Shown here: piece after piece, positions 36,963 to 53,969 of the stretch
Position numbering within the stretch: the stretch's first letter is position 1
Layout of the letters: each line of letters opens with the position of its first letter
Origin: an uncultured Parabacteroides sp.
GTDB taxonomy: Bacteria; Bacteroidota; Bacteroidia; Bacteroidales; Tannerellaceae
Assembly: GCA_944325335.1 (NCBI GenBank)
Contig: CALUZR010000012.1
Location: 5,860 to 69,859, forward strand
Length of the DNA: 64,000 bases
Direction: 5' to 3'
Notes under the pieces: generated by a model
Databases searched by the model: none
What the model was told of the DNA's origin: nothing
What the model saw: the letters and a program-made list of their open reading frames with translations, nothing else
Position numbers and translations under genes: made by a program

Positions 36963-37102
36963 GCGCCGCTCGGCGCAATACCTTTACGGCGTACGGCGCA
37001 ATACCTTTACGCCGCTCGGCGTAATACCTTTACGGCGTACGGCGCAATACCTTTACACCGCCCGGTGTAATACCTTTGCAGCGTACGGTGCAATACGCTT
37101 CC
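36963..37102. repeat. Tandem array, 6 units of 23-25 bp alternating between two subtypes (3 x 46 bp)
   Basis: Units end in AATACCTTTAC. Subtype A starts GCCGCTCGGCG and subtype B starts GGCGTACGGCG. The last two units are degenerate. Confidence 0.9.
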
Positions 37103-37163: not shown

Positions 37164-37171
37164 TACCTTTG
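37164..37171 (+). promoter_or_regulatory. -7 box for znuA
   Basis: TACCTTTG, 21 bp upstream of the ATG at 37192. Confidence 0.4.
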
Positions 37172-38809: not shown

Positions 38810-39018
38810 CCACGCCGCTTGTTTTCATCGGATTGCCCGAGGTGGGGTATATTGTCGGGATTGCCGTGATCTTGTTTGGATGCAAGGCGGTCTCGCAGAA
38901 CCCCTTCATCAGCAAGAAGCAGAAATTGCTATGGATGCTGACGATTGTCGTCCTCAACTGGGTCGGGTTGCTGTGGTATTATTACATCTATTATATAAGG
39001 AATAAAGAAGAAGAATGA
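38806..39018 (+). CDS. Small two-TM membrane protein (PLD-nuclease-N-like motif)
   Basis: 70 aa from MTTPLVF. ATGA overlap with the znuC stop and with the next gene. Carries the motif LLWMLTIVVLNWVGLLWYYYIY. Confidence 0.5.
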   Translation: MTTPLVFIGLPEVGYIVGIAVILFGCKAVSQNPFISKKQKLLWMLTIVVLNWVGLLWYYYIYYIRNKEEE

Positions 39019-40034
39019 ACACGGAAAAGAAGATATTGATTACAGGCGCCAGTGGTTTCATTGGCGGCTTTTTGGTAGACGAAGCCTTGAAACGGGGCTA
39101 CGAGGTGTGGGCAGGCGTACGGGCACATAGCAGCCGGGCGCATTTGCAAGACCCGCGTATCCATTTCATCGAGTTGGATTATAAGGAAGAGGCGGTGTTA
39201 GCGCGACAGTTGGCTGCGTTTCGCGAGGCGCATGGCAATTGGGATTATGTACTCCATAATGCCGGTCTGACCAAGACGCCCGACAAGCGCCAGTTCTTCG
39301 AAGTGAATGCTGAAAATACGCGCCGCTTCCTGGATGCGTTGGCTAAGGCATGTCCGCCCCGGAAGTTCCTATTGATAAGTAGTCTGAGCAGTTTCGGTAT
39401 GGGAGACGAAGCAAACTTCACGCCCATCCGCCTGACCGACGAGCCCCGTCCGAACACCGCCTATGGGAAGAGCAAGCTCCTGGCCGAGCAATATGTCCGT
39501 CGGCAAACCGCATTCCCTTACGTTATCTTGCGCCCGACGGGCGTGTATGGTCCGGGCGAGCGGGATTATTTCCTCGAAATCCAAAGCATCCAGGCGGGGT
39601 TTGATTTTACCGTAGGAATGACGCCGCAACGCATTACCTTCATCTATGTGAAGGACTTGGCGCGCGTCGCTCTCGATGCTTTAGAACAGGAGGAAATCCG
39701 CAACCGGGAATATTTCGTAGCGGATGGCGATGTGCATACCGACGCTTCGTTCGCCCGGCTTATCCAAGAGCTGTTGCCAAAGCGGCATGTGTGGCACGCC
39801 CGCATCCCGATGCCTTTGGTGCATATCGCCTGCATCATGTTGGAGCAGATCGGGAACTGGATGCACAAAAGCGTCACGCTCAATTCAGACAAGTATTATA
39901 TCTTGAAGCAGCGCAACTGGATATGCGACATCGCTCCGCTCCAGCGCGACCTTCACTTCCAAGCTGAATATGACCTACGCAAAGGACTGACGGAAACCCT
40001 TGCCTGGTATCGGGCGCAAGGTTGGCTCAAATAA
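39015..40034 (+). CDS. NAD-dependent epimerase/dehydratase family protein
   Basis: 339-aa ORF with a Rossmann motif (TGASGFIGG) and a Y...K catalytic pair (YGKSK). Confidence 0.88.
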   Translation: MNTEKKILITGASGFIGGFLVDEALKRGYEVWAGVRAHSSRAHLQDPRIHFIELDYKEEAVLARQLAAFREAHGNWDYVLHNAGLTKTPDKRQFFEVNAENTRRFLDALAKACPPRKFLLISSLSSFGMGDEANFTPIRLTDEPRPNTAYGKSKLLAEQYVRRQTAFPYVILRPTGVYGPGERDYFLEIQSIQAGFDFTVGMTPQRITFIYVKDLARVALDALEQEEIRNREYFVADGDVHTDASFARLIQELLPKRHVWHARIPMPLVHIACIMLEQIGNWMHKSVTLNSDKYYILKQRNWICDIAPLQRDLHFQAEYDLRKGLTETLAWYRAQGWLK

Positions 40035-40221
40035 GCGTTCCCCTCGCGCGCGTACATATATATTATATATAGGGAGAGGAAAGGCGTTTCCGGGCGTCGC
40101 CTTAATAGTTGAAGTGTTAAATTTGCGTAGCTTTAGGTATAAAAGAGGTGGGTTCAGAGAAAATTTTTACTTCGCAGTAATATTTTTTCGATTTCATGCT
40201 TGTTTTTAAGAAAAGAATACG

Positions 40222-40229
40222 TACATTTG
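40222..40229 (+). promoter_or_regulatory. -7 box for the second susC (implies a ~140-nt leader)
   Basis: TACATTTG. Confidence 0.35.
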
Positions 40230-40377
40230 TAGCGTTTCTAATGCGAATCGCGGTTATACCGATAGAGCCTTGAAGAAGACCCGGTCGGAAACAAAAAGCA
40301 CAAGTGGGCTAACCTGTTGATTCCGTTACAACAAGAAGAAAGTTAATTTTAAATATAAACACAATAAAGAATTATTT

Positions 40378-43300
40378 ATGCCAAACAAGACAACAAATTC
40401 CATTTGTTTGCTATTAGTGGCAGCTGCATTGAGCGTTACAGGTAACGTGTATGCAGAAATTGCCCCGGCAAACCCGAGTGCCCTCCGTGCTCAGCAGGAC
40501 GGTACAGTGACGGGTAACGTAGTGGATGCTTACGGTCCAGTCATCGGCGCATCCGTAATCATCAAAGGCACCACCACAGGTTGTATTACCGACATGGACG
40601 GTAACTTCACCTTGGAAGGCGTAAAGAACGGCGATGTAATCCAAATCTCGTACATTGGGTACAAGACGCAGGAAATCCCCTACACCGGCCAGCCGTCTCT
40701 CAACGTCACCATGGCGGAAGATTCCGAGCAACTTGAAGAGGTAGTCGTAACCGCCTTGGGTATCAAGAAAGACGCCAAGAAGTTGGGTTACGCCGTTAGT
40801 ACGATCTCTGCCGAAGATTTGAACAAGACCGGTAGCTCTTCGATTGCGACAGGCTTGTATGGTAAAGCAGCTGGTGTACGTATTAACTCGGCTCCCGGTG
40901 GTGGTACGGGGTCTATCTCTATCTCCGTGCGTGGTCTCTCTTCTATTACCGGTAACACGCAGCCGTTAATCATCATGGATGGTGTGCCCATCCGTAACGG
41001 TAACGCCAACAACAATGGTTATTGGGACAATCAGCGTGTCCAATCTAATGGTATGGTGGATATCAACCCGGAGGATATCGAAAACATCTCCATCTTGAAA
41101 GGTGCTGCCGCTTCGGCCCTCTACGGTTCGGAAGCTGCCAACGGTGTCGTCATGATTACCACGAAGAAGGGTAAAGCTGGTTCAGGTACCAAGATTGACT
41201 TCAGTGCCAACGTTTCTTTTGACAAAGTAGCGTACATGCCGGAAATCCAAAAACAATATGGTATGGGACTTGATAACTCATCTTTTACAAACGATGACCC
41301 CAAGGCATTGACAGGTTTTAGTAATACAACTTACTTCGACCGAAATGGCAATGCACTTTACACTCCTAACTCTGCAACTTATGATGGTTGGGGCGCTAAA
41401 TTTGATCCCAGCATAACAGTGACAGATTTCAATGGACTACAGCGTGCATGGGAGCCAATCGACCACAACCAATGGGCGGATATCTTCCGTACTGGTGTGA
41501 CGCAAACGTACAACCTTTCTATCACAAATGCCACAGAAAAGAATAATGTACGTTTCTCGTACACGTTCAACGACAACAAGCCGATGCAGTATAATTCGCG
41601 CAACAATAAGCACGTGTTCAGCTTGAACGGTACTTTCAATGTAACCGACAAGATCAAGTTGAATTACAACGCGAACTATACAACGCAGTACATTAAGAAC
41701 CGTCCGTATCGTATCAGTCGTTTGGTAACGAACTTTACCGGTATGTTCAATGGCTTTACGGATGTAGCATGGATTCGTGACCATACTATGACAAGTTTGG
41801 GTTACCTAAACTCAATAGCAGCTGTGAATGGTGGAACGCTTGATACCCTGACTCCAGACGAACAATTCCTTTATGATTCAGGTTCTTCAAGTATGATGAG
41901 TGAATATTTCTGGAATATCTTTGGTAAAGTACAGGAAGAAAATCACGAACGTTTCATTGGATCTGTCAACCCAACTTGGGATATCATTCCGGGCTTGACA
42001 TTGAGCGGACGTATCGCTACCGACTTGACCATCGATAAGATTGAAAATAAAAATAATGCGGAAAATGCACATATTTTCTCTACGAATGGACAATATAGCG
42101 ATTCTTACGGATTACAGAATAGCCGTTATTCGATTGTCTATGGCGATGTAATGTTGATGTTCGACAAGACCTTTGGTGAGAAACACAACGTAACCGCCAA
42201 TTTGGGTTGGAATGCGCGCCAGGAATCTTACTATTTGTCAAATGTTAGTACTTCACAAGGTTTGACACAGGAAAACTGGTTCCACTTGAATGCGTCTGTG
42301 GGTACGAAGAATGCCAGCATGACGAAACAGGAATTGCTCCGTACGGGTGCCTTCTTGACAGCCAGCTACGGCTACGACAGCTGGGGCTATGTAGAAGGAT
42401 CTATTCGTCAGGAAAAGACTTCTACCTTGAGCCATGGCAACAACGCTTTCTGGTACCCATCTGGTAGCTTAAGCGTATTATATACAGAGTTGTTGAAAGA
42501 CAAGAATCCGAGTTGGTGGAATTATGGTAAGATTCGTTTCTCGTATGGTGTCGTTGGTAATGCGCCGGAAATCTATTTGGCCAATATGGCATATGAGCAA
42601 AAATCATATACGCGCGGCGAAACCTTTGTTACAAACGGAGTACCGACTACCATTGGTAATGAAACCATCAAACCTGAAAAGAAATATGAATTTGAGTTAG
42701 GTATTGAAAATAAATTCTTGAACAACCGCTTGGGCATGGAGTTCAACTTCTATTCGAATACTATCAAAGACCAGATTCTGACAGCTACAGCAGCTACTAC
42801 GATGGGGGCTCAAGGCATGTTAATGAATGTCGGTGAGTTGGAAAACAAGGGTGTCGAATTAAATGTATATGGTACGCCGATTGAGACGAAAGACTGGCAT
42901 TGGGATTTACGTGCCAATGTAGCTTGGAACAAGAACCAAGTGAATAAGCTGGCTGACGGTTTGGATATGCTGAACCATACAAACGTAGACGGTGGTGCTG
43001 CCACGTTGGAATCTCATGTAGGACAACCAATGGGTGACTGGTATACTTATGTTTATGAAACCGACGAAAACGGTAACTATATTGTAGGTGAAAACGGATT
43101 GTATACTCGTTCCGCAGAGCGTCAAAAAGTAGGTAATGCTATGCCTAAAGTAACAGGTGGTTTTGGTACCAGCTTGAGTTATAAAAACTTGTCGTTGGAT
43201 GTGCAGTTTGATTTCCGCTTTGGTGGTGATGTGTTGAATACACCTTGGCAATATATGATGTCGGCAGGTAATATTGAAGATGCTGTAGGCGTTCGCGATG

Positions 43301-43830
43301 CAGAAACCGGAGGTATCTTTTATTATAGTACCACAGAAGACGTAACTGATAAGGCTTCTCTTCACCGCTTAACGGATGCTGAAATTGCTTCTTTAGGAAC
43401 TTATAAACGTGGAGAAACCATGTTGAATGGCCATTACGTATATGATAATGGTTTGATTCTGCCGGGTGTAAAAGCTGATGGAACGCCTAATGATATTATC
43501 GTAACGCAAGCCGAAGCAAATGCCCGTCAATATGGTTGGGGAACAGGCAATCCAGCAAGAACTTATATGGAAGCTGTACAAAAGAACAACTATATCAAGT
43601 GCCGTGAAATCAACTTGGGTTATACGTTACCTAAGGCATGGACCGAAAAGTTCGCTTGCAGCCGTTTGCAGGTTTCCGCATTTGTACGTAACCCGTTCTA
43701 TATATATCGTTCTTTGAAACTGTTCGATTCAGAAACATCGGATGGTACAAACTGGATCTACCAAGCACAGGTAGGTGGTTCTACGGCCAGTGCTCGTACG
43801 TTCGGTTTCTCACTTCGTGCAAGTTTCTAA
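40378..43830 (+). CDS. susC: SusC-type TonB-dependent receptor (no STN domain)
   Basis: 1150-aa ORF with a signal peptide, a carboxypeptidase-regulatory-like domain (GASVIIKGTTTGCITDMDGNF), a plug, and a terminal F. Confidence 0.92.
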   Translation: MPNKTTNSICLLLVAAALSVTGNVYAEIAPANPSALRAQQDGTVTGNVVDAYGPVIGASVIIKGTTTGCITDMDGNFTLEGVKNGDVIQISYIGYKTQEIPYTGQPSLNVTMAEDSEQLEEVVVTALGIKKDAKKLGYAVSTISAEDLNKTGSSSIATGLYGKAAGVRINSAPGGGTGSISISVRGLSSITGNTQPLIIMDGVPIRNGNANNNGYWDNQRVQSNGMVDINPEDIENISILKGAAASALYGSEAANGVVMITTKKGKAGSGTKIDFSANVSFDKVAYMPEIQKQYGMGLDNSSFTNDDPKALTGFSNTTYFDRNGNALYTPNSATYDGWGAKFDPSITVTDFNGLQRAWEPIDHNQWADIFRTGVTQTYNLSITNATEKNNVRFSYTFNDNKPMQYNSRNNKHVFSLNGTFNVTDKIKLNYNANYTTQYIKNRPYRISRLVTNFTGMFNGFTDVAWIRDHTMTSLGYLNSIAAVNGGTLDTLTPDEQFLYDSGSSSMMSEYFWNIFGKVQEENHERFIGSVNPTWDIIPGLTLSGRIATDLTIDKIENKNNAENAHIFSTNGQYSDSYGLQNSRYSIVYGDVMLMFDKTFGEKHNVTANLGWNARQESYYLSNVSTSQGLTQENWFHLNASVGTKNASMTKQELLRTGAFLTASYGYDSWGYVEGSIRQEKTSTLSHGNNAFWYPSGSLSVLYTELLKDKNPSWWNYGKIRFSYGVVGNAPEIYLANMAYEQKSYTRGETFVTNGVPTTIGNETIKPEKKYEFELGIENKFLNNRLGMEFNFYSNTIKDQILTATAATTMGAQGMLMNVGELENKGVELNVYGTPIETKDWHWDLRANVAWNKNQVNKLADGLDMLNHTNVDGGAATLESHVGQPMGDWYTYVYETDENGNYIVGENGLYTRSAERQKVGNAMPKVTGGFGTSLSYKNLSLDVQFDFRFGGDVLNTPWQYMMSAGNIEDAVGVRDAETGGIFYYSTTEDVTDKASLHRLTDAEIASLGTYKRGETMLNGHYVYDNGLILPGVKADGTPNDIIVTQAEANARQYGWGTGNPARTYMEAVQKNNYIKCREINLGYTLPKAWTEKFACSRLQVSAFVRNPFYIYRSLKLFDSETSDGTNWIYQAQVGGSTASARTFGFSLRASF

Positions 43831-43877
43831 ACGATTTAATTAGTTAGATTTAAAAAACAGATATAAATAAAGAAAGT

Positions 43878-45608
43878 ATGAAAAAGATACTATCATCGTT
43901 ATTGATCGGAGCAGCCCTTGTCTCTGGCATATCTTGTTCCGATTCGAGTTATGACGACAAATATATTGATCCTTCTAAGACGACAACGGTGGGTGTACCG
44001 CAAGTCTTCACGAAAGTGCTCTATCAAGCCAGAGAATGGACGGATTTAATGTATTACCGTTATTATGTACAGTGTGCATCTGAAGGTGTTTTTGCCGGAG
44101 TTGTAGGTGAGAGTAACGGTAATGGACGTTTCCAAGGCCCGGGTGTCAGCTATTATGACAGCCGATGGAAGAGTTTCTATTTGGTGGTAACAAACTTCCG
44201 TTTATTGGAAGAAACCTATAATAACTTGGACGATTTGGAAAAACCGGCCAATGAAGTATTCTACCATTTGGCACGTGTGGTAACCTATGCTCAGTTACAT
44301 GAAGTTCTTTCATTATGGGGAGATGTGCCTTTCAATGGAGCCGGTACGCTTTGGAAAGACGGAGACTATGACCGTGCGAAGCGTGAAAGTGTTTATGAAG
44401 ATGACGTAGAATTGTATCGCCAAATATTAAACGATTTGAAAGAAACGGGCGATTATTTGGCAAATGGTGTAGATGACGCCAGTCGTGTCTCTTTAGGACG
44501 TCAAGATTATACTGTGGCTGCTGGAGATACAGAAATGTGGCGTAAATATACAAATTCTTTGCGTTTACGCATTGCTTTACACTTGGCAACCAATGGAGAT
44601 TTAACATCAGAGGCTCGCGCGGCTATTGCTGAGATTTTGAACAATCCGGGTCAATATCCGCTTATCGAAAGCAACTCGGAAAACATGGGGGTAATGCCGT
44701 CAACGCAGCTTGATGATTTCAACTATGGCAAGTCTTTGTCGCAAGGATTACGTACTGGTTCTTATGCAGTAGGTTCGGCAACAATTCTTGATGTAATGAA
44801 TGTACCGGAAAACGGTATACCCGATGCCAATACCGACCCGCGTATTCAAGCGATGTATGACCCCAATCCCGATGGTGAATATGTTTCTTACGATATTACC
44901 TTGACCGATGCTCAAAATGCCAGCGTGGCAGAACAGAAGAATCAGGAATATGTAAGCAGAGGTATTACGACTGCCAATTATTGGTGCCAGATAGATACGC
45001 TTGCTATAGCTGGTTGGGCTGAATACCAAGGTAATGAAAACATCTTCTCTCTTTGGTTAAGTGCAGCTGAAGTAAGTCTTAGCAAAGCTGAAGCCTATTT
45101 GATGGGTTATGGCGTAACAGCAAATGAAAGTACTGCTAAGCAAAACTTTATTAATGGTGTAGTACAATCTTCTGAATATTTCTGGGATAATAAAAACACA
45201 ACCTCTCTTTACGAAGCAGGTAATGATAGTTATCGTGGTTATCGCGAACTTATCACACCTGAAACTGCCGACTTCCAAGCATACGCAGAAAGCATTTGGA
45301 ATCCTACTCAGGAAACTATCTGCGAACAGTTGTGGTTGAACTTCAGTTTCATGAACATGTTGGAGGCTTGGAATGTGACTCGTCGTACAGGTTATCCAAG
45401 AGTAACCTTCGCACGTGACTTCCAGAACCCGAATTATCCGACACCTCCTAATCGCCTTCCGTATGTGAATGATGAACTGGATTATAACAGTGATAACGTA
45501 CAACAGGCAATTGCTACAAACTGTGGTGGCGATAATGTGATAGGAGGCTATTATACACCTCTCTTCTGGGCTAAGAGTGATTATTATAATATAATTGATA
45601 TTCATTAA
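43878..45608 (+). CDS. susD: SusD-like nutrient-binding outer-membrane lipoprotein (SusD-like_2 type)
   Basis: 576-aa ORF with lipobox GISCS. Lies directly downstream of SusC. Confidence 0.88.
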   Translation: MKKILSSLLIGAALVSGISCSDSSYDDKYIDPSKTTTVGVPQVFTKVLYQAREWTDLMYYRYYVQCASEGVFAGVVGESNGNGRFQGPGVSYYDSRWKSFYLVVTNFRLLEETYNNLDDLEKPANEVFYHLARVVTYAQLHEVLSLWGDVPFNGAGTLWKDGDYDRAKRESVYEDDVELYRQILNDLKETGDYLANGVDDASRVSLGRQDYTVAAGDTEMWRKYTNSLRLRIALHLATNGDLTSEARAAIAEILNNPGQYPLIESNSENMGVMPSTQLDDFNYGKSLSQGLRTGSYAVGSATILDVMNVPENGIPDANTDPRIQAMYDPNPDGEYVSYDITLTDAQNASVAEQKNQEYVSRGITTANYWCQIDTLAIAGWAEYQGNENIFSLWLSAAEVSLSKAEAYLMGYGVTANESTAKQNFINGVVQSSEYFWDNKNTTSLYEAGNDSYRGYRELITPETADFQAYAESIWNPTQETICEQLWLNFSFMNMLEAWNVTRRTGYPRVTFARDFQNPNYPTPPNRLPYVNDELDYNSDNVQQAIATNCGGDNVIGGYYTPLFWAKSDYYNIIDIH

Positions 45609-45627
45609 TTAGCTATAGACTTTAAAA

Positions 45628-45649
45628 GCCGGGGGCGAAAGCCCTCGGC
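45628..45649 (+). other. GC-rich stem-loop with a GAAA tetraloop just after susD
   Basis: GCCGGGGGC-GAAA-GCCCTCGGC (9 bp including one G:U). No U-run follows. Confidence 0.55.
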
Positions 45650-45691
45650 ATATATAACAAAACAATCAACAAATCTTTAAACACGATAAAC

Positions 45692-45787
45692 ATGAAAAAG
45701 ACATTAACAATGGTAGCTTTAATAGCTGGGGCTATGTGCATGACAGGTAATACAGCTATGGCAACAGAAAATATAGAAATAATATGA
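45692..45787 (+). CDS. Possible 31-aa signal-peptide-like small ORF, or the remnant of a lost lipoprotein gene
   Basis: Manual translation gives MKKTLTMVALIAGAMCMTGNTAMATENIEII. Too short for the ORF track. No other support. Confidence 0.2.
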   Translation: MKKTLTMVALIAGAMCMTGNTAMATENIEII

Positions 45788-45883
45788 CATACATATATTA
45801 TATAAGTGTCTTGATTGACATCTATATAACCAACGGGGAAACCCGAAGCGATCTTTATTTCATAGAAAGGACAAGTGTAAGCG

Positions 45884-46099
45884 GGACGGTGAAACCGTCC
45901 AACCATGCTTAACCGCGGGTGACGCGTCAGCGTTACCTGCGGTAGTGGAATCCACCTCCATCCCGACCCCAAGGGGGTCGAACAGGGGGAACGAAGCAGT
46001 TCGACCCCTTCGAGGTCGAGGGGGATAGGGAGGCAGCCTCCCCGCAGGTAACGCTACGCGTCACCCGCGGTTAAGCATCGTTAGACGGCTTTGCCGTCT
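45884..46099. repeat. Long inverted repeat (arms of about 59 nt, spacer 99 nt), GC-rich
   Basis: The manual reverse complement of 46042-46099 matches 45884-45942. The inner 38 nt are perfect except for one 1-nt indel; the outer 21 nt have 6 mismatches. The spacer contains its own 10-bp stem (GGGGTCGAAC..GTTCGACCCC). Confidence 0.9.
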
Positions 46100-46193
46100 G
46101 GAGGCGAGCATCGCCTCGTTTCTACATTATCCAGATTCCTTATGTCGTCCTACGTATCCCGACTGCAGCGGAGGGATATCTCGACAAGCTCGA

Positions 46194-46341
46194 GATGACG
46201 TATGAGGTGTTCAGAGACCCTTCGACTTTGCTCAGGGTGACGTAGGAATAAAACAGGATGACGTAAGAGTAAAAACAGGGCAACGTTGAAGTAAAACAGT
46301 GACGTAAGTGTAAAGCTGGATGACGTAGATATAGAAACAAA
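46194..46341. repeat. 21-bp-phased array with a TGACGTA core (iteron-like)
   Basis: TGACGTA at 46196, 46238, 46259, 46300 and 46321, plus degenerate CAACGTT at about 46281. The unit is roughly GATGACGTAAGAGTAAAAACAG. Confidence 0.85.
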
Positions 46342-46593
46342 CGACAATAGAGACAACATACAACAAACAAAATAACAATAAATTGTTTCTAATCCCTGAT
46401 ATAGTGGATTCGACAGAAGAATGCTTACTTTGGCTGCAGGGATTGCACCCCGTAAGCTGTTATGAAATGTGTTTTTAGAGGGGGGCGGAATACGCATCCC
46501 GTCCCCTTCTTTTCCCAGCACGGCGGGGAAGCATTCTTTTGTGGGATTCCCTTTGTCTGAGGGAGGCTGCAGACGCCCTATAGGAAGGGTTTC

Positions 46594-46681
46594 GACACTT
46601 CTTATAGGTGTCGGTGACACTTCTTATAAGTGTCGGTGACACTTCTTATAGGTGTCCGAGACACTTCTTATAAGTGTCGAC
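46594..46681. repeat. Tandem array, 4 units of 22 bp, equivalent to 8 alternating heptad half-sites GACACTT / AAGTGTC
   Basis: Units at 46594, 46616, 46638 and 46660. Half-sites are separated alternately by 5 and 3 bp, so they recur about every 11 bp. Confidence 0.92.
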
Positions 46682-46734
46682 AGCTTGTTTGAGATTAATT
46701 CTATTAATTGTATAACTTCTTAAATTACAACATT

Positions 46735-47487
46735 ATGCCGATTTTCAAGGCCGTATACAAAAAGATGTCAAAGCTGTGGTATCCACAGGCGGTGACGATC
46801 GGTTCGCCCGTTTCGATGGACGAATTGTGTAAGCAAATCGCCATGATGACGACGGTCAGCACGCCGGATGCAAAGGCGGCGATCGAAGCTATGGGCATGG
46901 TGATGGGCGGTTTTATGAACTCGGGCCGTAGCGTACAAGTCGACGGGCTGGATACCTTCTATTATACTTGTACTTCTAAAGGACAAGGTGTGAGTACTGC
47001 TGACGAGGTGAGCGCGAAGCAAATCGCAGGCACGCGCGTTCGTTTTGTTCCCGAATCAAGCCGGAAGGGTAACACGATAAAACGCACTTTGATTAGCGAA
47101 GATTTGGTATGGACAAATATTAAGGAGATTAGCACGCTGGACGGTACGGGCGTTACTTCGAGCTTTACCGGCATCACGTGTGGCGCGACGGGACAGACGA
47201 ACGGGCACCTGAAGCGCGGCGCCATCGCTTTTGCCAATGGTAATGGCATTGAATGCAAGGACGCGACGGGCGAAGGGTTTGGCAAGGGCTATTTGCGGAA
47301 CGAGTTTGAGGTGGACGAGGAACTTGAAATCAGGTTGTCGACCAACGATTCGCTGGTTTTCGTCGTGCCCATCGATTTGGCAGAGGGCAACTATACGCTC
47401 CGCATCGAAACGTATATCGGTACGAACGGCAAGTTGCAAACCGAACCGCGCACCATCGAGTACCCAAGTCCTTTGGTATTAGAATAA
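46735..47487 (+). CDS. HU-like DNA-binding domain protein with a C-terminal DUF4469-type Ig-like module
   Basis: Start at MPIFKAVYKK (typical HU-like N-terminus), chosen over the TTG at 46708. The C-terminus LAEGNYTLRIETY matches the 8892..10016 protein. Confidence 0.85.
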   Translation: MPIFKAVYKKMSKLWYPQAVTIGSPVSMDELCKQIAMMTTVSTPDAKAAIEAMGMVMGGFMNSGRSVQVDGLDTFYYTCTSKGQGVSTADEVSAKQIAGTRVRFVPESSRKGNTIKRTLISEDLVWTNIKEISTLDGTGVTSSFTGITCGATGQTNGHLKRGAIAFANGNGIECKDATGEGFGKGYLRNEFEVDEELEIRLSTNDSLVFVVPIDLAEGNYTLRIETYIGTNGKLQTEPRTIEYPSPLVLE

Positions 47488-47651
47488 ATATAGATTTAAA
47501 GATAGATATCTACCTAAAAAGGCCGCAGGGATGCGCCCGAGTGGATTTTGTACAGTTACCATACTTCAAACGATTGGACATCTTCTCCGGTTCTTTTCTT
47601 TATTTCATCCTTCATTTCTTGTTGGATGGATTCGATAAGTTCCTTTCTGTG

Positions 47652-48914
47652 CTACAGGTATTCTTTCCATTTCCTTATCCAATCTTCCCGTTTTGCCTCT
47701 TGCGCGTCTTGCATTTTTACCAAAATATAAGCCCAATAACCCGTCTCTGCGTGAACGGGGCAGAGGTTCAGGTAACCCTGCGTGATGCGTTGGCCTTGGA
47801 GCTGGAGGGGATGGCGTTGGCACATCTCGCGATGCCGCGCAAGGGCTTCGCCGGGCTCTTTGTGGAAAGAGAGGGAGAAAACACCCTGTGTCGCAGGGGC
47901 CAGGTAGTGTTCCGAGAGATGGAGGGCCAGGCCGCCCATCGTCTGCCGCATGTTGATTTCCACGCAGGGATGGATGCGGAGCGGAGCTGCTGCCGCCGGG
48001 CGATAGAGGAACATATCCACGCCAAGCGGACCTTGATAGGCGGTGCCATAGAGGGAGGCAAGCACTTGGCATACCGCCTCTTTCGTCCGCTCGAAAGCCG
48101 GGAGGCTGATATATGCCTCCAATTGCTGGAGGCGATAGGCCTCCGTCCCCAAGAGATTACCTGAATAGGCGCCCGTGCGTACGGTCTGAAACAGCGAGAG
48201 GCCGCGATAGGCCACTTGCCCTTTCCCGTCGGAATAAAATTCCATCGCGAAGTCTTTTACCTTATCATAGAGGGGCTCGATGCTCACCGCGCCCTGTTTC
48301 CGGATGACGGCTGCCGCCCATTGTTGCTTTTTCTCGTCCCATCCGGTGGCCGGGAAGGACAACAGGCCGCGGCCGGACGAAGAGAAGGGTGCTTTCAGCA
48401 GGAATGTCCCCTGCTTACCGTCGAGCCAATGGTTGAGGGCGTCGAGCGACGTGGCAAAGAAGGGAAGCGAGGGCAGTTCCTCCGGAGGCAATAACGCATG
48501 AAGGGACGCCAACGCCTGGCGTGCCGTCTCCCGGCTGGCCAACCGGCGATAGGTCTCCGTCCACACGGGTACCTCGAGGGGCAAGCGGTATTGCTTGGCC
48601 ATGCGTTCGAACTGGGCCAACACGTTCGGCGCCAGTCCCCAAGGCGCTGCTACGAAACGCGGCTCGGAAAAGAGCCGGCGCGGAGAGGCCAGGCGGGGCA
48701 AATGGGGAAACAGTTCCCTCATGCGCTCCGCGTAGGTCTCGTCTGCCGGTGATTCGGCCCAGACGACATCTTCGGAATTTCCGTACCAGAGCGGGAGGCA
48801 AGCCAATTCCATCCCCATGCGGCGCACAGAAAAAGCCGGCGTATAATTGCGCCGGCTGATACCTATCGCCTCCTCGTTTCCCGGATTGAAATAGATAAAA
48901 GAAGCGGGTGGCAT
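47652..48914 (-). CDS. Conserved hypothetical protein, possibly ATP-grasp-like
   Basis: 420-aa ORF that directly abuts the DUF349 stop (operon). The block LLKAPFSSSGRGL suggests an ATP-grasp fold. The product call is weak. Confidence 0.7.
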   Translation of the reverse strand: MPPASFIYFNPGNEEAIGISRRNYTPAFSVRRMGMELACLPLWYGNSEDVVWAESPADETYAERMRELFPHLPRLASPRRLFSEPRFVAAPWGLAPNVLAQFERMAKQYRLPLEVPVWTETYRRLASRETARQALASLHALLPPEELPSLPFFATSLDALNHWLDGKQGTFLLKAPFSSSGRGLLSFPATGWDEKKQQWAAAVIRKQGAVSIEPLYDKVKDFAMEFYSDGKGQVAYRGLSLFQTVRTGAYSGNLLGTEAYRLQQLEAYISLPAFERTKEAVCQVLASLYGTAYQGPLGVDMFLYRPAAAAPLRIHPCVEINMRQTMGGLALHLSEHYLAPATQGVFSLSFHKEPGEALARHREMCQRHPLQLQGQRITQGYLNLCPVHAETGYWAYILVKMQDAQEAKREDWIRKWKEYL

Positions 48915-50756
48915 TTATTCTAAGTTTTCATCAATGGCTTCGATCTTTTGCACGATCAGGTTCATCTCTTCGCGCAAGGTCGCGATCTTGCGTTCCAATT
49001 CTTTGACGAGCCCGCCTCCACCTTTTGAAGCGACACTCAAGAACCCGATATTGTTCTCGTAAGTTTGGAGCTCGTTCTTCATCCGTTCGTAGTTGCGCAT
49101 CAGTTTCTCGCGCTCGGTATACAATTTGCCTTTGCCCTTGCCCGCCATTTCGCTGAGGTTCGAGCGGAACGAACGGATCCGGCGGTCCTGACGGTCCACC
49201 TTCAAGCGGTCGAACTGCGCGTCGATGGCCGTATGGAACGCGTTGTATATTTTGTCTTTCTCTTTGAACGGGACGAAACCGATGGTGTTCCATTCCGCCA
49301 TGTACTCTTTCAAGAGGTTGATGGCCTCGTCCGGGTCGAGCGATTCGTCGAGCGACTTCACCTTTTCGATCAGTTCCTTCTTGGCTTTGAGATTCTCTTG
49401 CTCTTCGTTTTTCTGCGAGGCGAAAGCCTTCTCCTTTTGCTCGAAGAAATAATCGCACGCGGTGATGAAGCGTTTCCAGATGGCATCGGAATGGCGGAAC
49501 TGTACTTGCCCGACAGCCTTCCATTCTTTCTGCAGCTCTACGAATTTGTCGGTCGTCTCTTTCCAATCCGTACTATCTTTCATGGCTTCCGCCCGTTCGC
49601 AGAGTTTCCGTTTCTTCTCGAGGTTCTTTTCCATTTCCGCTTTCATGGTCTTGTAGAACTCGATTTTCTTCTTAAAGAAGATATCGCATGCGGAGCGGAA
49701 ACGTTCGAATATCTTGGTGTTGTATTTCTTCGGCGTGAAACCGATGGTGCGCCAACGCTTTTGCAACTCAATCACCTCTGTATTCTTTTTATCCCAATCT
49801 TTGAAAGTCTTGAGCTTCGTATAATCGATGGCCTCCACCTGTTCGCAGATAGCGGTCTTGGCCACCAGGTTGTCTTGCTCTTTCGCCTTCATGTCTTCGA
49901 AATATTGCTGGTGGCGCTTATTGATGACGGTCGAGGCCGCTTTGAAGCGAGCCCATAAATCCTCGCGCAAATCCTTGGCCACCGGACCAATCTCGCGCCA
50001 TTGCTGGTGCAGTTTCTGAAGTTGGTGGAAAGCCGAAATCACATCCGGTTCGTTTTCGAGCTTCTCTACGGTTTCGCAAAGCGCGGTCTTCAATTCGAGG
50101 TTCTTCTTGAAGTCGTAATCGCGGAACTGATTGTTTATCTTAATCAAATCGTAGAATTGCTCGCTGTACGTCTGGTATTCGTGCCAAAGTTCGTTGGCAT
50201 GTTCTTCGGGTACCTGTTTGATCTCTTTCCATTTTTGTTGGATAGCCTTGAACTCGTTGTAGAGTTTGTTGAAGTCTTCCTGGCTGGCACAGAGCGCCTT
50301 CAGCTGGTCGATGAGTTGGAGTTTCAGCGTATAGTTCGCCTCCTTTTGTTTCTCCTCTTCGGCAAGCAGGGCGGCCTTTTTCTCCTTATAGATGGCCAGC
50401 AAGTCCTTCAGTTCGGCTTCCGAAGTATCTTCCGGAATTGCAAAATCCTCTTCTGCGCCACCCTGGCTGAGGAACGCGTTCTTTTGCGCTTCGACCTCGT
50501 TATGGCGAATCTTATAGTAAGCCTGTTTGAGCGACTCGACTTCGCTGCGCACGTTTTCCACCGGCGCTTCGACAAGCGACTTCAACCGACTTAGGATTTC
50601 GTCTTTGGTTAATTTACCCGCAGATTCTACCTCTGCCTCGTTTGTTTCCGTAGCTACCTCCGCCGCTTGTGGGGTGGCCGTTGCTACTTGTTCTTTAGTT
50701 TCGTTCAATTCGACGGTATTTTCGCCCGTCAAATTCGTTTCAAGAGTGTCCTTCAT
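48915..50756 (-). CDS. DUF349 repeat protein
   Basis: 613-aa ORF with repeated W.(E/T)IG(P/F)(V/T)P..-type helical repeats. Highly charged. Confidence 0.85.
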   Translation of the reverse strand: MKDTLETNLTGENTVELNETKEQVATATPQAAEVATETNEAEVESAGKLTKDEILSRLKSLVEAPVENVRSEVESLKQAYYKIRHNEVEAQKNAFLSQGGAEEDFAIPEDTSEAELKDLLAIYKEKKAALLAEEEKQKEANYTLKLQLIDQLKALCASQEDFNKLYNEFKAIQQKWKEIKQVPEEHANELWHEYQTYSEQFYDLIKINNQFRDYDFKKNLELKTALCETVEKLENEPDVISAFHQLQKLHQQWREIGPVAKDLREDLWARFKAASTVINKRHQQYFEDMKAKEQDNLVAKTAICEQVEAIDYTKLKTFKDWDKKNTEVIELQKRWRTIGFTPKKYNTKIFERFRSACDIFFKKKIEFYKTMKAEMEKNLEKKRKLCERAEAMKDSTDWKETTDKFVELQKEWKAVGQVQFRHSDAIWKRFITACDYFFEQKEKAFASQKNEEQENLKAKKELIEKVKSLDESLDPDEAINLLKEYMAEWNTIGFVPFKEKDKIYNAFHTAIDAQFDRLKVDRQDRRIRSFRSNLSEMAGKGKGKLYTEREKLMRNYERMKNELQTYENNIGFLSVASKGGGGLVKELERKIATLREEMNLIVQKIEAIDENLE

Positions 50757-50899
50757 ACTTTATCGTTTTAGAGAGGATTGTTACATTTCCTGTTCTTGCT
50801 TTCAAATCAAATACAAATTAAGCTAAATAATTTTTTATAACCATACATTTGGCCGTTTTTTTTCGTAAAAATCGCTAAAGGAGAACAAGCGTCTTTCTG

Positions 50900-50984
50900 A
50901 AAAATACAGAGACACGGAGGCGTGGAGCTTTTTATTTGATTGATTCTCAAATCAAATCCTCCGCATCTCCGTGCCTCCGTGTTC
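50900..50984 (-). terminator. Long imperfect hairpin plus U-run after the phosphoesterase gene
   Basis: On the minus strand, GAACACGGAGGCACGGAG pairs with CTCCACGCCTCCGTGTCTC (two mismatches), then TGTATTTTT. Confidence 0.5.
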
Positions 50985-50986
50985 AA

Positions 50987-52192
50987 TTACAACTCAAGCT
51001 TCAATTTTTCGCTTCCATCCGTCGCGAGGACTTGGAGCGTGAGCTGCTCTCCCTGCTTCCTGAGTACCATCATGTAGGCATCTTCCGGTTTATAGCCGCC
51101 TCCAATCACGACGGGGAAAGGATTCCCCGCTTCCTGTGCCGGATAATAGGTGAAATGATGCCAGTGGGCATTCAGGGATACATCGAACGGCGCGCTTTGG
51201 AGGAGCGGGTTCCAGAGGTCGAAGCACGGATTGTAATGCACCTTCCGCGTGCTATAAATCGGAATGTGATGCACCAAAATATGCCGTTGGGCCGATTTGA
51301 ACGCTTCGCTTGCCAGCTCTTCCTTTAGGAAATCCACCTGGTCTTTGCGGAATTGTTCGAAATCGTTCAACCCGTAATACACCCACGTGCTATCCGGCTT
51401 ATCCTCCCCGCAATCGAGCGTCACGAAGCGCGTATCGCCCCACGAGAAAGCTCCGTAGGTCGTTTCGTCTATATAATCGAACAACTGGCGCATCTCGATG
51501 GAATACGCGCCGCGGATTTCATGATTCCCACGCAGGAAGAAGCAAGGCTTATCGGACGCATCCGCCAACGCATTGAGGTGGTTCAGGATTTCAATCGCGC
51601 GTGCCTCTTCGTCTACATCGTCGATGCAATCGCCATTAAAGATGACAAAATCATACGCGATACCTTGCTTTTGAATCACATCGGCAAACAAATCCATGGT
51701 CTTGAACTGGCTATGCAAGTCGTTGAAAAGAAGCGCCGTGAAATCGGTCGTCTCTTTCGTGGGCAACGTAAAGGTATGCACGTCTGAGTAAGCCGTATTT
51801 CCAAATTCTTTCTTATAAGGTTGATAGAGGGTGATTTCGCGCGAACAAACACGATAGCTATACGTCTCGCCCGCCTCCAGCCCGTCCAAACGGAAATGAT
51901 GCCGCGTGTTGTTGCAGATCATCTGTCCGTCTGCATACAAGTATTTCTTTTGGTCCAGTTTCCCGTCTTTCCCATATTCGACCCACGCCACCACCGGCAC
52001 GTTCGTCTCCCAACAAATGGTAATTTCATCGCCTATCGGGCGTTGCAAATAGGGTTGCGTACGGAATATTTGCTCCACCGGCGTAACCGTTTGTTCTTTT
52101 TTTACCTCCTCCGCTCCGGTTTGGGCGGATACGCACATCGGGCTAAGCATCCACAAAGCCACGACCATTCCAATCCAATAACGTGTTTTCAT
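50987..52192 (-). CDS. Metallophosphoesterase, purple-acid-phosphatase-like, secreted
   Basis: 401-aa ORF with a signal peptide. PAP N-domain start (TQPYLQRP) and calcineurin-like motifs (GDCIDD, LRGNHE). Confidence 0.85.
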   Translation of the reverse strand: MKTRYWIGMVVALWMLSPMCVSAQTGAEEVKKEQTVTPVEQIFRTQPYLQRPIGDEITICWETNVPVVAWVEYGKDGKLDQKKYLYADGQMICNNTRHHFRLDGLEAGETYSYRVCSREITLYQPYKKEFGNTAYSDVHTFTLPTKETTDFTALLFNDLHSQFKTMDLFADVIQKQGIAYDFVIFNGDCIDDVDEEARAIEILNHLNALADASDKPCFFLRGNHEIRGAYSIEMRQLFDYIDETTYGAFSWGDTRFVTLDCGEDKPDSTWVYYGLNDFEQFRKDQVDFLKEELASEAFKSAQRHILVHHIPIYSTRKVHYNPCFDLWNPLLQSAPFDVSLNAHWHHFTYYPAQEAGNPFPVVIGGGYKPEDAYMMVLRKQGEQLTLQVLATDGSEKLKLEL

Positions 52193-52435
52193 CTCCTATT
52201 ATATATAATGTATATTCATTCCGTCCACACGAACGGACGGACAAATATAGCAAATTATTTCCTTTCTTCCCATCATCCGCCCCAAAGCACGCCTTCTTTT
52301 CCGGAGAACATAGGCATGATCGGCGGCGATTATCGTTATCTTTTGGGGAGGTTATAGGCATAAACGAAAGAAGCGATAAAGGGGACATGTGCCCCTTTTC
52401 CGCTCCCATATAGATGATTCAAATAGAACAAATAA

Positions 52436-53929
52436 TTAGTACCCTGGATTCTGCTCTAACTTCTTGTTGTTGTTCATTTCGCTCGTCGGAATAGGGAATA
52501 ATAATTCCTTCTCGCTCAACGACGGGCCATAGGTGAATTTATGTCCTACGAAATCATCAAAACCGCCTGTTGTCAAGTTCAATACTTTGCGTGTACGCAC
52601 CATGTCAAACCAAATCTTATTCTCAAAAGCCAATTCATGATAGCGTTCTTTCCAAACAGCTTCGCGGAATTGATTTTGCGATAAGCCAGCCAATGGTTGT
52701 AAATTAGCACGCTGGCGAATTTGATTGACTGCATTATATGCACTTTCCGATGGTGCCCCTTCCGCTTCATTAGCCGCTTCAGCATAAAGCAATAAGACGT
52801 CTGCATAGCGAAGGAGTGGCCAGTTCAAGCTACTTTGCGCCGTATTCTCTTGCGCGTCAACATCAAACATCTTAAATATAAAATGGCTTGGGAATGTAAC
52901 CACCTGCGAACGATCATTATTTGAAGTATAGCTTGTGTAATAGAATTGATGGTCTTCCGTACGTTTATCACCTTCTTCGTATGAGTCGATAAACTCTTGA
53001 AGCGCATAAATAGAGCCTGTCTCAGTTGAGTATGCCGAGATGTCCATATTGAAAGGACAATAGAGGTACTGCCATCCATTCGCCGTTACGCCTGCTTGGT
53101 ATTGGATCATAAACATGTGTTCACCTTGATTTTCATAGGCTACGTCATGGAGTTTATCATACGAATCAAAAAGACTATACGTACCATTGTCTATTACCTC
53201 TTTGGATTTGGATGCAGCAAGTTGATAGTACTCGTTGCCACGCTGAAGTGGATAACCAGCCATTGTCATGTACACTTGGGCTAACAAAGATTTTACTACA
53301 CCCATTGTTACGCGACCGCTGGCATCATCCCATGGCAAACCACTATTCTCTGCGGCTTGCAAGTCTGACACGATTTGGTTATAAACCTCTTCCACAGAAG
53401 CCTGAGAAGGATAAAGTTCCTCTGAAGAGGCATCTACCGGATTCAGAATCAGAGGAACTGCTCCGAAAATACGTACCAGATTGAAATAGTTATAGGCACG
53501 AAGCGCATACGCTTCACCTAAGCATCGGTTCTTTGCACTTTCTTCCATTTCATCAATAGTCGGGATATGGGCAATGGCCAAATTTGCATTTGCAATAGCC
53601 CGATACGGACGGTTCCACCACGAACGGCTATATTCATTATCCGAGTCGTTGGTGCAATTCCGGATTTTATTGATTTGCTGGTTCTGTCCTACATACGTAC
53701 CAGCCAATCCCGTGGCAAAGTCTGTCATGAAGTACGGATTACCTCCATAATCATTATTTGCGGACATCTGCAAATCATAATAGATCGCATTCACGACAGA
53801 TTGTGCATGCTCTTCCGTCTGGAAATAATTTTCCTGTGTAAAATTAGACGGATCGGACTCATCCAAAAAATTTGTACAACTGCCCAATAAAACCAATGAT
53901 ACAACGGGCAATATATATTTTATTCTCAT
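52436..53929 (-). CDS. susD: SusD/RagB-family nutrient-binding outer-membrane lipoprotein
   Basis: Start at MRIKYILPVVSLVLLGSC (lipobox), chosen over the upstream ATG at 53983, which would overlap susC. Confidence 0.9.
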   Translation of the reverse strand: MRIKYILPVVSLVLLGSCTNFLDESDPSNFTQENYFQTEEHAQSVVNAIYYDLQMSANNDYGGNPYFMTDFATGLAGTYVGQNQQINKIRNCTNDSDNEYSRSWWNRPYRAIANANLAIAHIPTIDEMEESAKNRCLGEAYALRAYNYFNLVRIFGAVPLILNPVDASSEELYPSQASVEEVYNQIVSDLQAAENSGLPWDDASGRVTMGVVKSLLAQVYMTMAGYPLQRGNEYYQLAASKSKEVIDNGTYSLFDSYDKLHDVAYENQGEHMFMIQYQAGVTANGWQYLYCPFNMDISAYSTETGSIYALQEFIDSYEEGDKRTEDHQFYYTSYTSNNDRSQVVTFPSHFIFKMFDVDAQENTAQSSLNWPLLRYADVLLLYAEAANEAEGAPSESAYNAVNQIRQRANLQPLAGLSQNQFREAVWKERYHELAFENKIWFDMVRTRKVLNLTTGGFDDFVGHKFTYGPSLSEKELLFPIPTSEMNNNKKLEQNPGY

Positions 53930-53969
53930 AATTGTTCGATTTAAATAATTAGAATTAAGCTTTAACTGA

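Follow-up and report, generated by a model that had tools for sequence, protein, structure and literature searches.

The interval between susD and the HU-HIG gene

The stretch of DNA analyzed here (64,000 nt in full, hereafter the window) belongs to a contig of an uncultured Parabacteroides species. It holds an interval of 1.1 kb (45609-46734) that separates susC and susD (40378-43830 and 43878-45608, both on the plus strand) from a plus-strand gene for an HU-like protein of 250 amino acids (46735-47487). A Pfam scan places this protein in the HU-HIG clade (PF18291; 54.0 bits, cut-off 26.2), whose family profile matches solved HU structures, and assigns it an Ig-like DUF4469 domain (PF14734; 34.6 bits, cut-off 22.6). 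The interval is a mosaic of at least five unrelated non-coding modules at an intergenic hot spot and not one device. Only its proximal ~340 bp travel with the HU-like gene; they comprise a structured GC-rich segment, a set of 22-bp repeats and an AT-rich leader. The 22-bp repeats are the local instance of a signature that is common to the HU-HIG family, and they are probably the control site of related HU-like genes in gut Bacteroidales.

Metagenome contigs of up to 126 kb (L001, L002 and L014-L019) and Parabacteroides sp. An277 (L004), whose HU-like protein is 87% identical, carry the same locus. The shared gene order is susC, susD, the intergenic region, the HU-like gene, an open reading frame (ORF) of 400-420 amino acids and a DUF349 gene. 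In an alignment of the window with L004, L014, L018 and L019, the modules of the interval are gained and lost independently of each other. From left to right, they would correspond to a susD terminator, a block with a tiny ORF, a palindromic element of ~300 bp, an insertion that resembles repetitive extragenic palindromic (REP) sequences and, finally, the control region of the HU-like gene. The initial annotation of this stretch saw no credible ORF in the interval, and this stands: an ORF of 156 amino acids on the minus strand has no Pfam match, and the minus-strand frames shift among close relatives due to insertions and deletions that are not multiples of three, which supports a non-coding interval. 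A decayed gene was rejected on the same grounds.

The segment 46393-46734 is present in all five aligned sequences, and it is best explained as the only part of the interval that belongs functionally to the HU-like gene. The initial annotation had asked whether the region travels with the HU-DUF4469 gene; the gene-proximal part does, while the distal modules come and go. The segment starts with a conserved, structured GC-rich stretch (46393-46592, plus strand), in which a long closing stem surrounds two GC hairpins; its L004 counterpart is 78% identical. The long-range complement reported for this stretch was found again (46398-46426 with 46529-46557). The plus strand folds at -86.4 kcal/mol (z = -5.0) and the minus strand at -64.5 kcal/mol (z = -2.9), with a z of -4.5 for the counterpart in L004. 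A consensus fold comprises 64 pairs, three of which show compensatory changes, and the closing stem is kept in L004. There are hints here of a transcribed, structured leader RNA of the HU-like gene, for which this stretch is a candidate. The gene-proximal part, which has the geometry of iterons, may belong to a long structured leader such as the initial annotation considered.

Immediately downstream lie four tandem units of 22 bp (46594-46679, plus strand), each consisting of GACACTTCTTATA(A/G)GTGTC and a 3-nt linker. They were detected as direct repeats and by Tandem Repeats Finder (TRF; score 144, 90% matches). Every unit contains the inverted heptads GACACTT/AAGTGTC, and the motif is matched six times in the window compared to 0.01 times in its shuffles. 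What had been described as eight alternating heptads ending 53 bp before the start codon is a genuine repeat, yet it consists of four 22-bp direct repeats and ends 55 nt 5' of the ATG at 46735. Copy number differs among near-identical strains, with four copies in L018, five in L019 and about six in L014. The remaining 55 nt up to the start codon (46680-46734, plus strand) form an AT-rich spacer or leader with the element TTTG-N19-TATAAC, also kept in L004 and L014.

Arrays upstream of HU-HIG genes in other lineages

The DNA upstream of HU-HIG-type relatives was surveyed in 15 lineages from different genera and genomic contexts. Arrays with a period of 22-23 bp and 2-11 copies are present in 12 of them. 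The gap between array and ATG measures 28-79 nt, and 52-57 nt in seven of the 12 lineages measured. Across lineages the arrays preserve their period and position, while the sequence of the unit varies. It is CAAAGGTCTGACCTTTAACTAA in Phocaeicola coprophilus (L006; ~3 copies), AAAAGTCCCCACCTTTTCCCAC in Ca. Bacteroides merdipullorum (L007; 3.2 copies), CTCATACGCCGTAAGAGGGTAC in contigs of uncultured Bacteroides sp. (L010/L011; 3 copies) and AGGTAGCTACCAAGCCGATCCCG in a phage-labelled contig (L054; 2.5-3 copies). The metagenome contigs carry GACACTTCTGATAGGTGTC (L024-L026, P0039; 4 copies), CCGGACGTGAGCCTACCTCACC (L027-L029, P0051; 3 copies), GACACTTAGCACAAGTATC (L030-L032, P0035; 4 copies), GACACTTCCCATAAGTGTC (L033-L035, P0017; 4-5 copies, the last one inverted), CCTAAGTTCCGGACTTAGATAC (L057/L058, P0098; 2-3 copies), the same unit as in L030 (L059/L060, P0104; ~3.4-4 copies) or a 23-bp unit in about 11 copies (L020-L023, P0024). 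A TRF scan of ~287 kb returned only three other arrays of similar period, namely the TGACGTA array discussed below, one within a coding region and one at 36971-37096 of the window, which leaves the HU-HIG gene as the sole constant neighbor of the arrays. No GACAC-type arrays were found in viral contigs, and no HU-HIG relatives were confirmed in IMG/VR.

The array at 36971-37096 consists of 5.5 copies of a 23-bp tandem unit, CGGCGCAATACCTTTACGGCGTA, with 81% matches. It is located between the secDF terminator and the znuA promoter (a perfect TACCTTTG box at 37164-37171), and its reverse complement partly resembles the L010/L011 unit, with TACGCCGTAA in common. Two widespread array-bearing HU-HIG genes (L057-L060) adjoin a tyrosine integrase gene, and the one in L057/L058 is followed directly by a gene for a Mob_Pre relaxase. 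Integrative mobilisable elements therefore carry some members of the family.

The distribution of conserved and variable positions within the units differs between clades. Clade A, in which the HU domains share 61-94% identity, has conserved half-sites (GAYACTT/AAGTRTC), whereas the 5-nt centre (CTTAT, CCCAT, CTGAT or AGCAC) and the 3-nt linkers vary and units are occasionally inverted, a pattern as would be expected for the binding sites of a dimeric protein. Clade B (HU domains 64-86% identical) comprises several unit types. Two homologous arrays of this clade, in L027 and L057, are distinguished by compensatory changes in their arms (TGAGG/CCTCA versus CTTAG/CTAAG). Co-evolution of unit sequence with overall HU-domain identity holds in clade A and fails in clade B, and is not used here as strong evidence. 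On the protein side, the most variable patch comprises residues 79-82, just after the conserved FYYT motif, which by analogy with the HU fold would place it at the base of the DNA-binding beta-arm. P0024 (L020-L023) occupies the same chromosomal locus. Its HU domain is only ~23% identical to that of the window protein and it is preceded by a different, 23-bp array of 11 units, while its C-terminal DUF4469 domain is near-identical (~90%, as read by eye from the alignment). The P0024 protein thus reads as a mosaic.

A canonical or near-canonical Bacteroides promoter (TTG...TAnnTTTG, as defined in PMC7366714) is located ~30-95 nt 5' of the array in L007, L010, L011, L027 and L057, and L054 has a weak candidate upstream of its array. 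This position would place the array within transcribed leader DNA in the former five. In the array-less L055, the promoter TATATTTG is found at the usual -36.

Distal modules and flanks of the locus

Directly behind susD, the sequence reads as a terminator-like hairpin with a GAAA loop (GCCGGGGGC-GAAA-GCCCTCGGC; 45628-45649, plus strand), as had been noted before. A homologous hairpin follows susD in L004 and the terminator hairpin is common to the relatives; it belongs to the operon of the upstream polysaccharide utilization locus and not to the HU-like gene. The signal-peptide-like ORF of 31 codons in the initial annotation was located at 45692-45787, within a lineage-specific block of 134 bp (45665-45798, plus strand). 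This block is identical in L014 and L019, without substitutions between the copies, and absent from L018 and L004. Next to it starts a conserved element of ~300 bp, found in all five sequences, that consists of a small hairpin, a flank of ~55 nt and a palindrome of 214 bp. The small hairpin (TATATAAGTGTC-N6-GACATCTATATA; 45798-45829, an inverted repeat with no strand assigned) shows a compensatory change in L004, where GTGTC/GACAT becomes GTGCC/GGCAT as read from the alignment, and its pairing is kept via G-T wobbles in L018.

The GC-rich palindrome itself (45885-46098, no strand assigned) is built of inverted repeats around a branched centre, with arms that pair over 43 nt at 88% and over 14 nt at 100%. 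It had been described as a palindrome of ~216 bp with flanking small hairpins; the palindrome is there, but apart from a separate hairpin at 46099-46118 the supposed flanking hairpins are part of its arms. Folded as RNA, one strand reaches -162.5 kcal/mol (z = -13) and the other -173.7 kcal/mol, so both strands fold equally, and the mismatches in the arms show no strand bias. The arms are 83% conserved in L004, in which the central loop is replaced. Across the whole window, no Rfam covariance model reached its gathering score, in agreement with the initial annotation, which had recognized no RNA family. The best match below threshold, Metazoa_SRP on the palindrome (29 bits versus a threshold of 70), is due to chance, because the underlying motif is replaced in L004. 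Signal recognition particle RNA, whose helix 8 the AGGGGGAACGAAGCAG centre resembles, was rejected for this reason and for the score. Similarly, the arm sequences GCTTAAC and GTTAAGC fit the R''/R' consensus of integron attC sites. They lie ~25 bp inside the palindrome, span more than a typical attC and have no integrase nearby, and the L004 breakpoints do not coincide with the G/TT position; the likeness was treated as chance.

L004 carries a second, rearranged copy of the palindrome 3' of its HU gene, in which the right half precedes the flank and the start of the left arm. The two copies (3409-3621 and 5062-5265) bracket the HU-like gene. The left arm of the upstream copy matches the right arm of the downstream copy at 86%, with a perfect core of 35 nt, and its own right arm at 79%. 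This better match across copies implies that the HU gene is bracketed by long inverted repeats that exchanged sequence, and it suggests either arm exchange or an invertible segment of ~1.65 kb. No other copies were found in metagenome and viral scans (one chance 20-mer without wider similarity), and a protein-database search with a spurious ORF of 42 amino acids returned only its own cluster. Compared with a miniature inverted-repeat transposable element (MITE), which has terminal inverted repeats, a target-site duplication and multiple dispersed copies, the palindrome does have long inverted arms; upon inspection, its flanks show no direct repeat, and the rearranged L004 copy is the sole other one seen. 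The palindrome is a DNA-level repeat element restricted to this lineage.

Alignment with relatives delimits the next module as an insertion/deletion block (46099-46392, plus strand). It comprises the short hairpin at 46099-46118, an inverted pair of a REP-like motif of ~30 nt (about 46144-46182 and 46212-46246), a degenerate array of 21-bp TGACGTA repeats (46233-46339, with the TRF repeat extending to 46328) and an A-rich tract with an AT skew of 0.34, the latter already present in the initial annotation. The earlier description of six 21-bp-phased TGACGTA repeats was slightly generous in count and phasing. Five copies are exact (46196, 46238, 46259, 46300 and 46321, all on the plus strand) and one, near 46281, is degenerate; the first copy is 42 bp from the next, and TRF reports a period of 21 with 4.6 copies and 69% matches. 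Within these 132 bp lie five of the nine TGACGTA copies of the window.

The block is wholly absent from L004, which has ~65 unrelated bases in its place. An 88-nt part recurs at the unrelated locus L021 (81%), and shorter parts occur in L003 and L026. Its inverted motif pair scores above 499 of 500 shuffles. The core motif CCTTCGACTNNGCTCAGGGTGAC has exact matches in 17 viral-contig stretches, mostly in AT-rich intergenic spacers, and two of these 17 carry 21-nt tandem GCTCAGGGTGACA repeats. A motif of ~25 nt, (G/A)CCCTTCGACTNCGCTCAGGGTGACA (46218-46242 of the window; L036-L052), forms a lone GC-rich island in AT-rich intergenic spacers of many viral contigs that are unrelated to each other. 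It is often found a few bases 5' of a start codon, with several occurrences per contig in L040, L043, L047 and L052. Given the dispersed motif and the absence from L004, the supposed iterons plus AT-rich tract represent a dispensable REP-like insertion. As with REP/REPIN dispersed repeats, a motif of ~25-30 nt is present at many intergenic sites, sometimes in inverted pairs or short tandem runs. Unlike these, it is only weakly palindromic and it is unconnected to HU-HIG genes. In E. coli, REP325 hairpin RNAs are reported to act with HU. The TGACGTA repeats are the least conserved module of the interval, and the iteron-like behavior ascribed to them belongs to the heptad array instead. Nor is a reading of the ordered series as a single grammar supported, as the modules have separate histories: the ORF block is missing from L018 and L004 and the TGACGTA/A-rich block from L004, and the palindrome is duplicated in L004.

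On the other side of the gene, homology to every relative ends at ~47547, ~60 nt past the stop codon of the HU-like gene. The end coincides with a GNRA-loop hairpin (GGCCGCA-GGGA-TGCGCCC; 47521-47538, plus strand) that is the 3' limit of the block travelling with the gene. Hairpins of the form GGCCGCA-G(G/C)GA-TGCGCCC occur on both sides of the HU-like gene, in the window (46431-46452 and 47521-47538) as well as in L004 (3709-3730, 4787-4806 and 4897-4916). The downstream one in L004 has a GCGA loop and is doubled around an insert of ~110 bp, resembling a duplicated target site. Beyond ~47547 the neighbors differ, with a PIN toxin-antitoxin pair in L003, SocA/Panacea in L021 and DUF6169 in L020 and L023; the DNA just past the hairpin is a hot spot for toxin-antitoxin-like cassettes. 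The HU-like gene is broken in two relatives. In L019, a 17-bp tandem duplication (ATTGTGTAAGCAAATCG twice; 3962-3995) splits the ORF, and in L018 a deletion of ~98 bp lies within the DUF4469 region (around 4524). The upstream array is still present in both. The Pfam scan of the flanking ORFs (39015-53983) identified an epimerase, SusC, SusD, DUF349, a phosphoesterase and a SusD-family protein, next to others without a match. On the minus strand, 3' of the HU-like gene, lie a GC-rich ORF of 420 amino acids without a Pfam match (47652-48914; 58-68% GC amid surroundings of ~45%) and the DUF349 gene; an ORF of 400-420 amino acids adjoining the DUF349 gene is kept in all relatives of the locus.

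A possible operator, leader RNA or mobile repeat

Our working interpretation, put forward tentatively, is that the 22-bp array may be an iteron-like operator, bound by the HU-HIG protein that is encoded downstream, and that binding may lead to autoregulation. Dimers of the protein would bind successive 22-bp units. As the units are spaced two helical turns apart, these dimers would be located on one face of the DNA and could assemble into a compact nucleoprotein block. Positioned between promoter and start codon, such a block would set the expression of the HU-HIG gene itself. Several observations argue for an operator. Arrays with a period of 22-23 bp recur 28-79 nt before the ATG in 12 of the 15 lineages, while modules elsewhere in the interval come and go independently. 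Half-sites are conserved in clade A amid variable centres and linkers, and some units are inverted; the L027 and L057 arrays exhibit compensatory arm changes. The variable patch at residues 79-82 follows the FYYT motif, and P0024 pairs a divergent HU domain with a different array at the same locus. Finally, the promoter lies upstream of the array in several lineages, and the array-less L055 has its promoter at -36.

A number of points weigh against the operator. In three of the 15 lineages, no array precedes the gene. In L012 the array is located 3' of the gene instead; L053 is an amidase-linked HU gene on a B. finegoldii record in a plasmid collection; and L055 is an HU gene of a different family, PF14848, fused to DUF4469. 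Conversely, the array at 36971-37096, which may be an orphan array, has no HU-HIG gene nearby. The HU domains of L027 and L006 are 86% identical and their units are nonetheless unrelated, so that specificity would have to reside on a few residues, or another protein would be the binder. Dyad symmetry of the units is statistically clear in only some lineages, which leaves direct repetition, period and position as the universal features. No canonical promoter (TAnnTTTG box with a -33 TTG) was found in 45600-46735 of the window, and arrays that are transcribed could act as RNA. In addition, Burroughs et al. (PMC5499826) consider HU-HIG proteins unlikely to be sequence-specific transcription factors, and observe that in members fused to an Ig domain this domain may occlude the site for DNA.

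The main rival of the operator reading is a function at the RNA level: the 22-bp array and the GC-rich segment would form a long structured 5' leader with tandem hairpins, possibly bound by the HU-like protein itself, that controls mRNA stability or translation of the HU-like gene. We regard this as unlikely, even if it would account for the five or six lineages in which a promoter precedes the array, for the constrained distance between array and ATG, for the markedly better fold of 46393-46592 on the sense strand with a closing stem that is kept in L004, and for the A/G alternation in the units of the window, which preserves U-A or U-G pairing on the sense strand. The two strands of the arrays fold with about the same stability, which does not always exceed that of shuffles (z = -0.7 for the sense strand of L011), and some units contain C-A mismatches on the sense strand (L030, L033). 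The unit arms in L006, L020 and L054 are 0-2 nt apart, so no hairpin is possible there. Moreover, the stems are conserved in sequence and the loops are variable, which is the opposite of the usual pattern in RNA hairpins. Equally unlikely is that the interval has no function for the cell and collects selfish or slippage repeats at a recombination hot spot, with the arrays as hitch-hikers. Relatives do gain and lose modules, the TGACGTA block consists of a short motif that is widely dispersed, copy number of the array is polymorphic, the HU gene is broken in L019 (17-bp duplication) and L018 (~98-bp deletion), and toxin-antitoxin-like inserts accumulate at a hot spot in the downstream flank. 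For the palindrome and the TGACGTA block, this explanation is plausible, and selfish or neutral repeats are their most economical reading. It is not plausible for the proximal array, of which period, position and orientation are kept at HU-domain identities as low as 23-35% and in unrelated contexts, of which the half-sites remain conserved where the non-coding DNA around them can no longer be aligned, and in which the arms show compensatory changes.

Rather improbable is a third role, in which recombination at the arrays or palindromes would move or invert cassettes of HU-HIG genes. It would explain why HU-HIG genes occur in many unrelated contexts, also beside tyrosine integrase or Mob genes (L057-L060), and it would fit the block-wise swap of array and HU domain in P0024, the sharp 3' boundary of the conserved block at ~47547 and the L004 gene bracketed by inverted palindrome arms, with their 35-nt perfect core and better match to the distant partner. 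However, the Pfam scan of neighboring ORFs at the locus of the window found no integrase, all five relatives share the same orientation without any inverted isoform found, and arrays and palindrome were not found together outside this lineage. The replication origin or partition centromere of a plasmid or phage, proposed in the initial annotation because iterons occur together with an AT-rich tract, a large palindrome and the gene of an architectural protein, is largely refuted and highly improbable. The geometry does resemble that of pPS10-type iteron origins, with 22-bp direct repeats by the gene of a DNA-binding protein and an A-rich tract nearby, and tandem direct repeats of 17-22 bp are present (22 bp in four copies, and a degenerate 21 bp in 4.6 copies). 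Yet no test that was run gave a replicon signature. As the initial annotation had itself observed, no Rep, Par, Mob or integrase gene is found among the neighbors (Pfam, ORFs 39015-53983), and this includes the ParA/ParM NTPase of a partition system. DnaA-box-like 9-mers number 17 in the window versus 14.2 expected, with one in the interval, and there is no skew switch; without DnaA-box excess or skew change, a chromosomal origin was rejected too. A blastn comparison with 72,556 plasmid and 50,697 phage records detected no similarity. Several relatives have the locus on the chromosome and in synteny, among them Parabacteroides sp. An277, from which both the A-rich tract and the TGACGTA repeats are absent and hence dispensable. 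Up to 22 HU-HIG copies per genome, as reported by Burroughs et al. (PMC5499826), are also hard to reconcile with each array being an origin.

Some known systems come close to the arrays described here. Iteron plasmids such as pPS10, with four 22-bp iterons next to repA, and R6K, also with 22-bp iterons, have an autoregulated initiator gene. As in these plasmids, direct repeats of ~22 bp (two helical turns) in 3-11 copies immediately precede the gene of a small DNA-binding protein, the unit sequence is element-specific and the copy number is variable. In contrast, the HU-HIG protein has an HU/IHF fold and not the winged helix of Rep, and HU-HIG loci are chromosomal and multi-copy per genome, with no DnaA-box cluster and no evidence for replication. 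Neither is an unwinding element needed at the HU-HIG locus, as the A-rich tract is absent in L004. ParR-parC and the heptad arrays of the omega repressor of pSM19035 are centromere/operator arrays bound by small dimeric repressors. They share with the HU-HIG arrays the contiguous short repeats, direct or inverted, upstream of the gene of the binder and, provided that the HU-HIG protein is the binder, a cooperative operator. They differ in having a ParA/ParM partner, which was not found among the neighboring ORFs in the window, units of 7-11 bp compared to 22-23 bp, and a different fold.

One possible but doubtful extension is that each HU-HIG paralog of the Bacteroidales specifically recognizes its own private array of 22-23 bp. 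The paralogs would then be self-addressed modules in which arm and array co-diversify, giving orthogonal nucleoprotein marks. If true, paralog-private arrays would be the HU-fold counterpart of Rep-iteron or ParR-parC pairs, and the marks could serve paralog-specific regulation, or act as sensors or decoys in conflicts with mobile DNA.

In Burroughs et al. 2017 (PMC5499826), HU-HIG genes are described as stand-alone, rapidly diverging and loss-prone, almost wholly without conserved operonic linkage, and located in conflict-type neighborhoods; a role in conflicts with mobile elements is proposed there as speculation only, and a term search of that paper gave no sign of upstream repeats. The neighborhoods sampled here likewise include toxin-antitoxin and integrase genes. 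Full-text literature searches found no published description of arrays upstream of HU-HIG genes. Operator and iteron mechanisms are of a known kind, while their association with a family of HU-fold proteins across the Bacteroidales seems to be novel.

The inviting view of the locus as a cryptic replicon is corrected by these results, which illustrate that large, striking palindromes and 'iterons' in intergenic regions of Bacteroidales can be repeats that merely hitch-hike and have no relation to one another. Few DNA-binding families of gut Bacteroidales are as expanded and as little understood as the HU-HIG proteins. The array raises the questions of which protein binds it, whether each paralog recognizes its own array and whether copy number tunes expression. 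With its fixed period and position and its lineage-specific sequence, it constitutes a conserved cis-partner of these genes and the first concrete, testable handle on the family.

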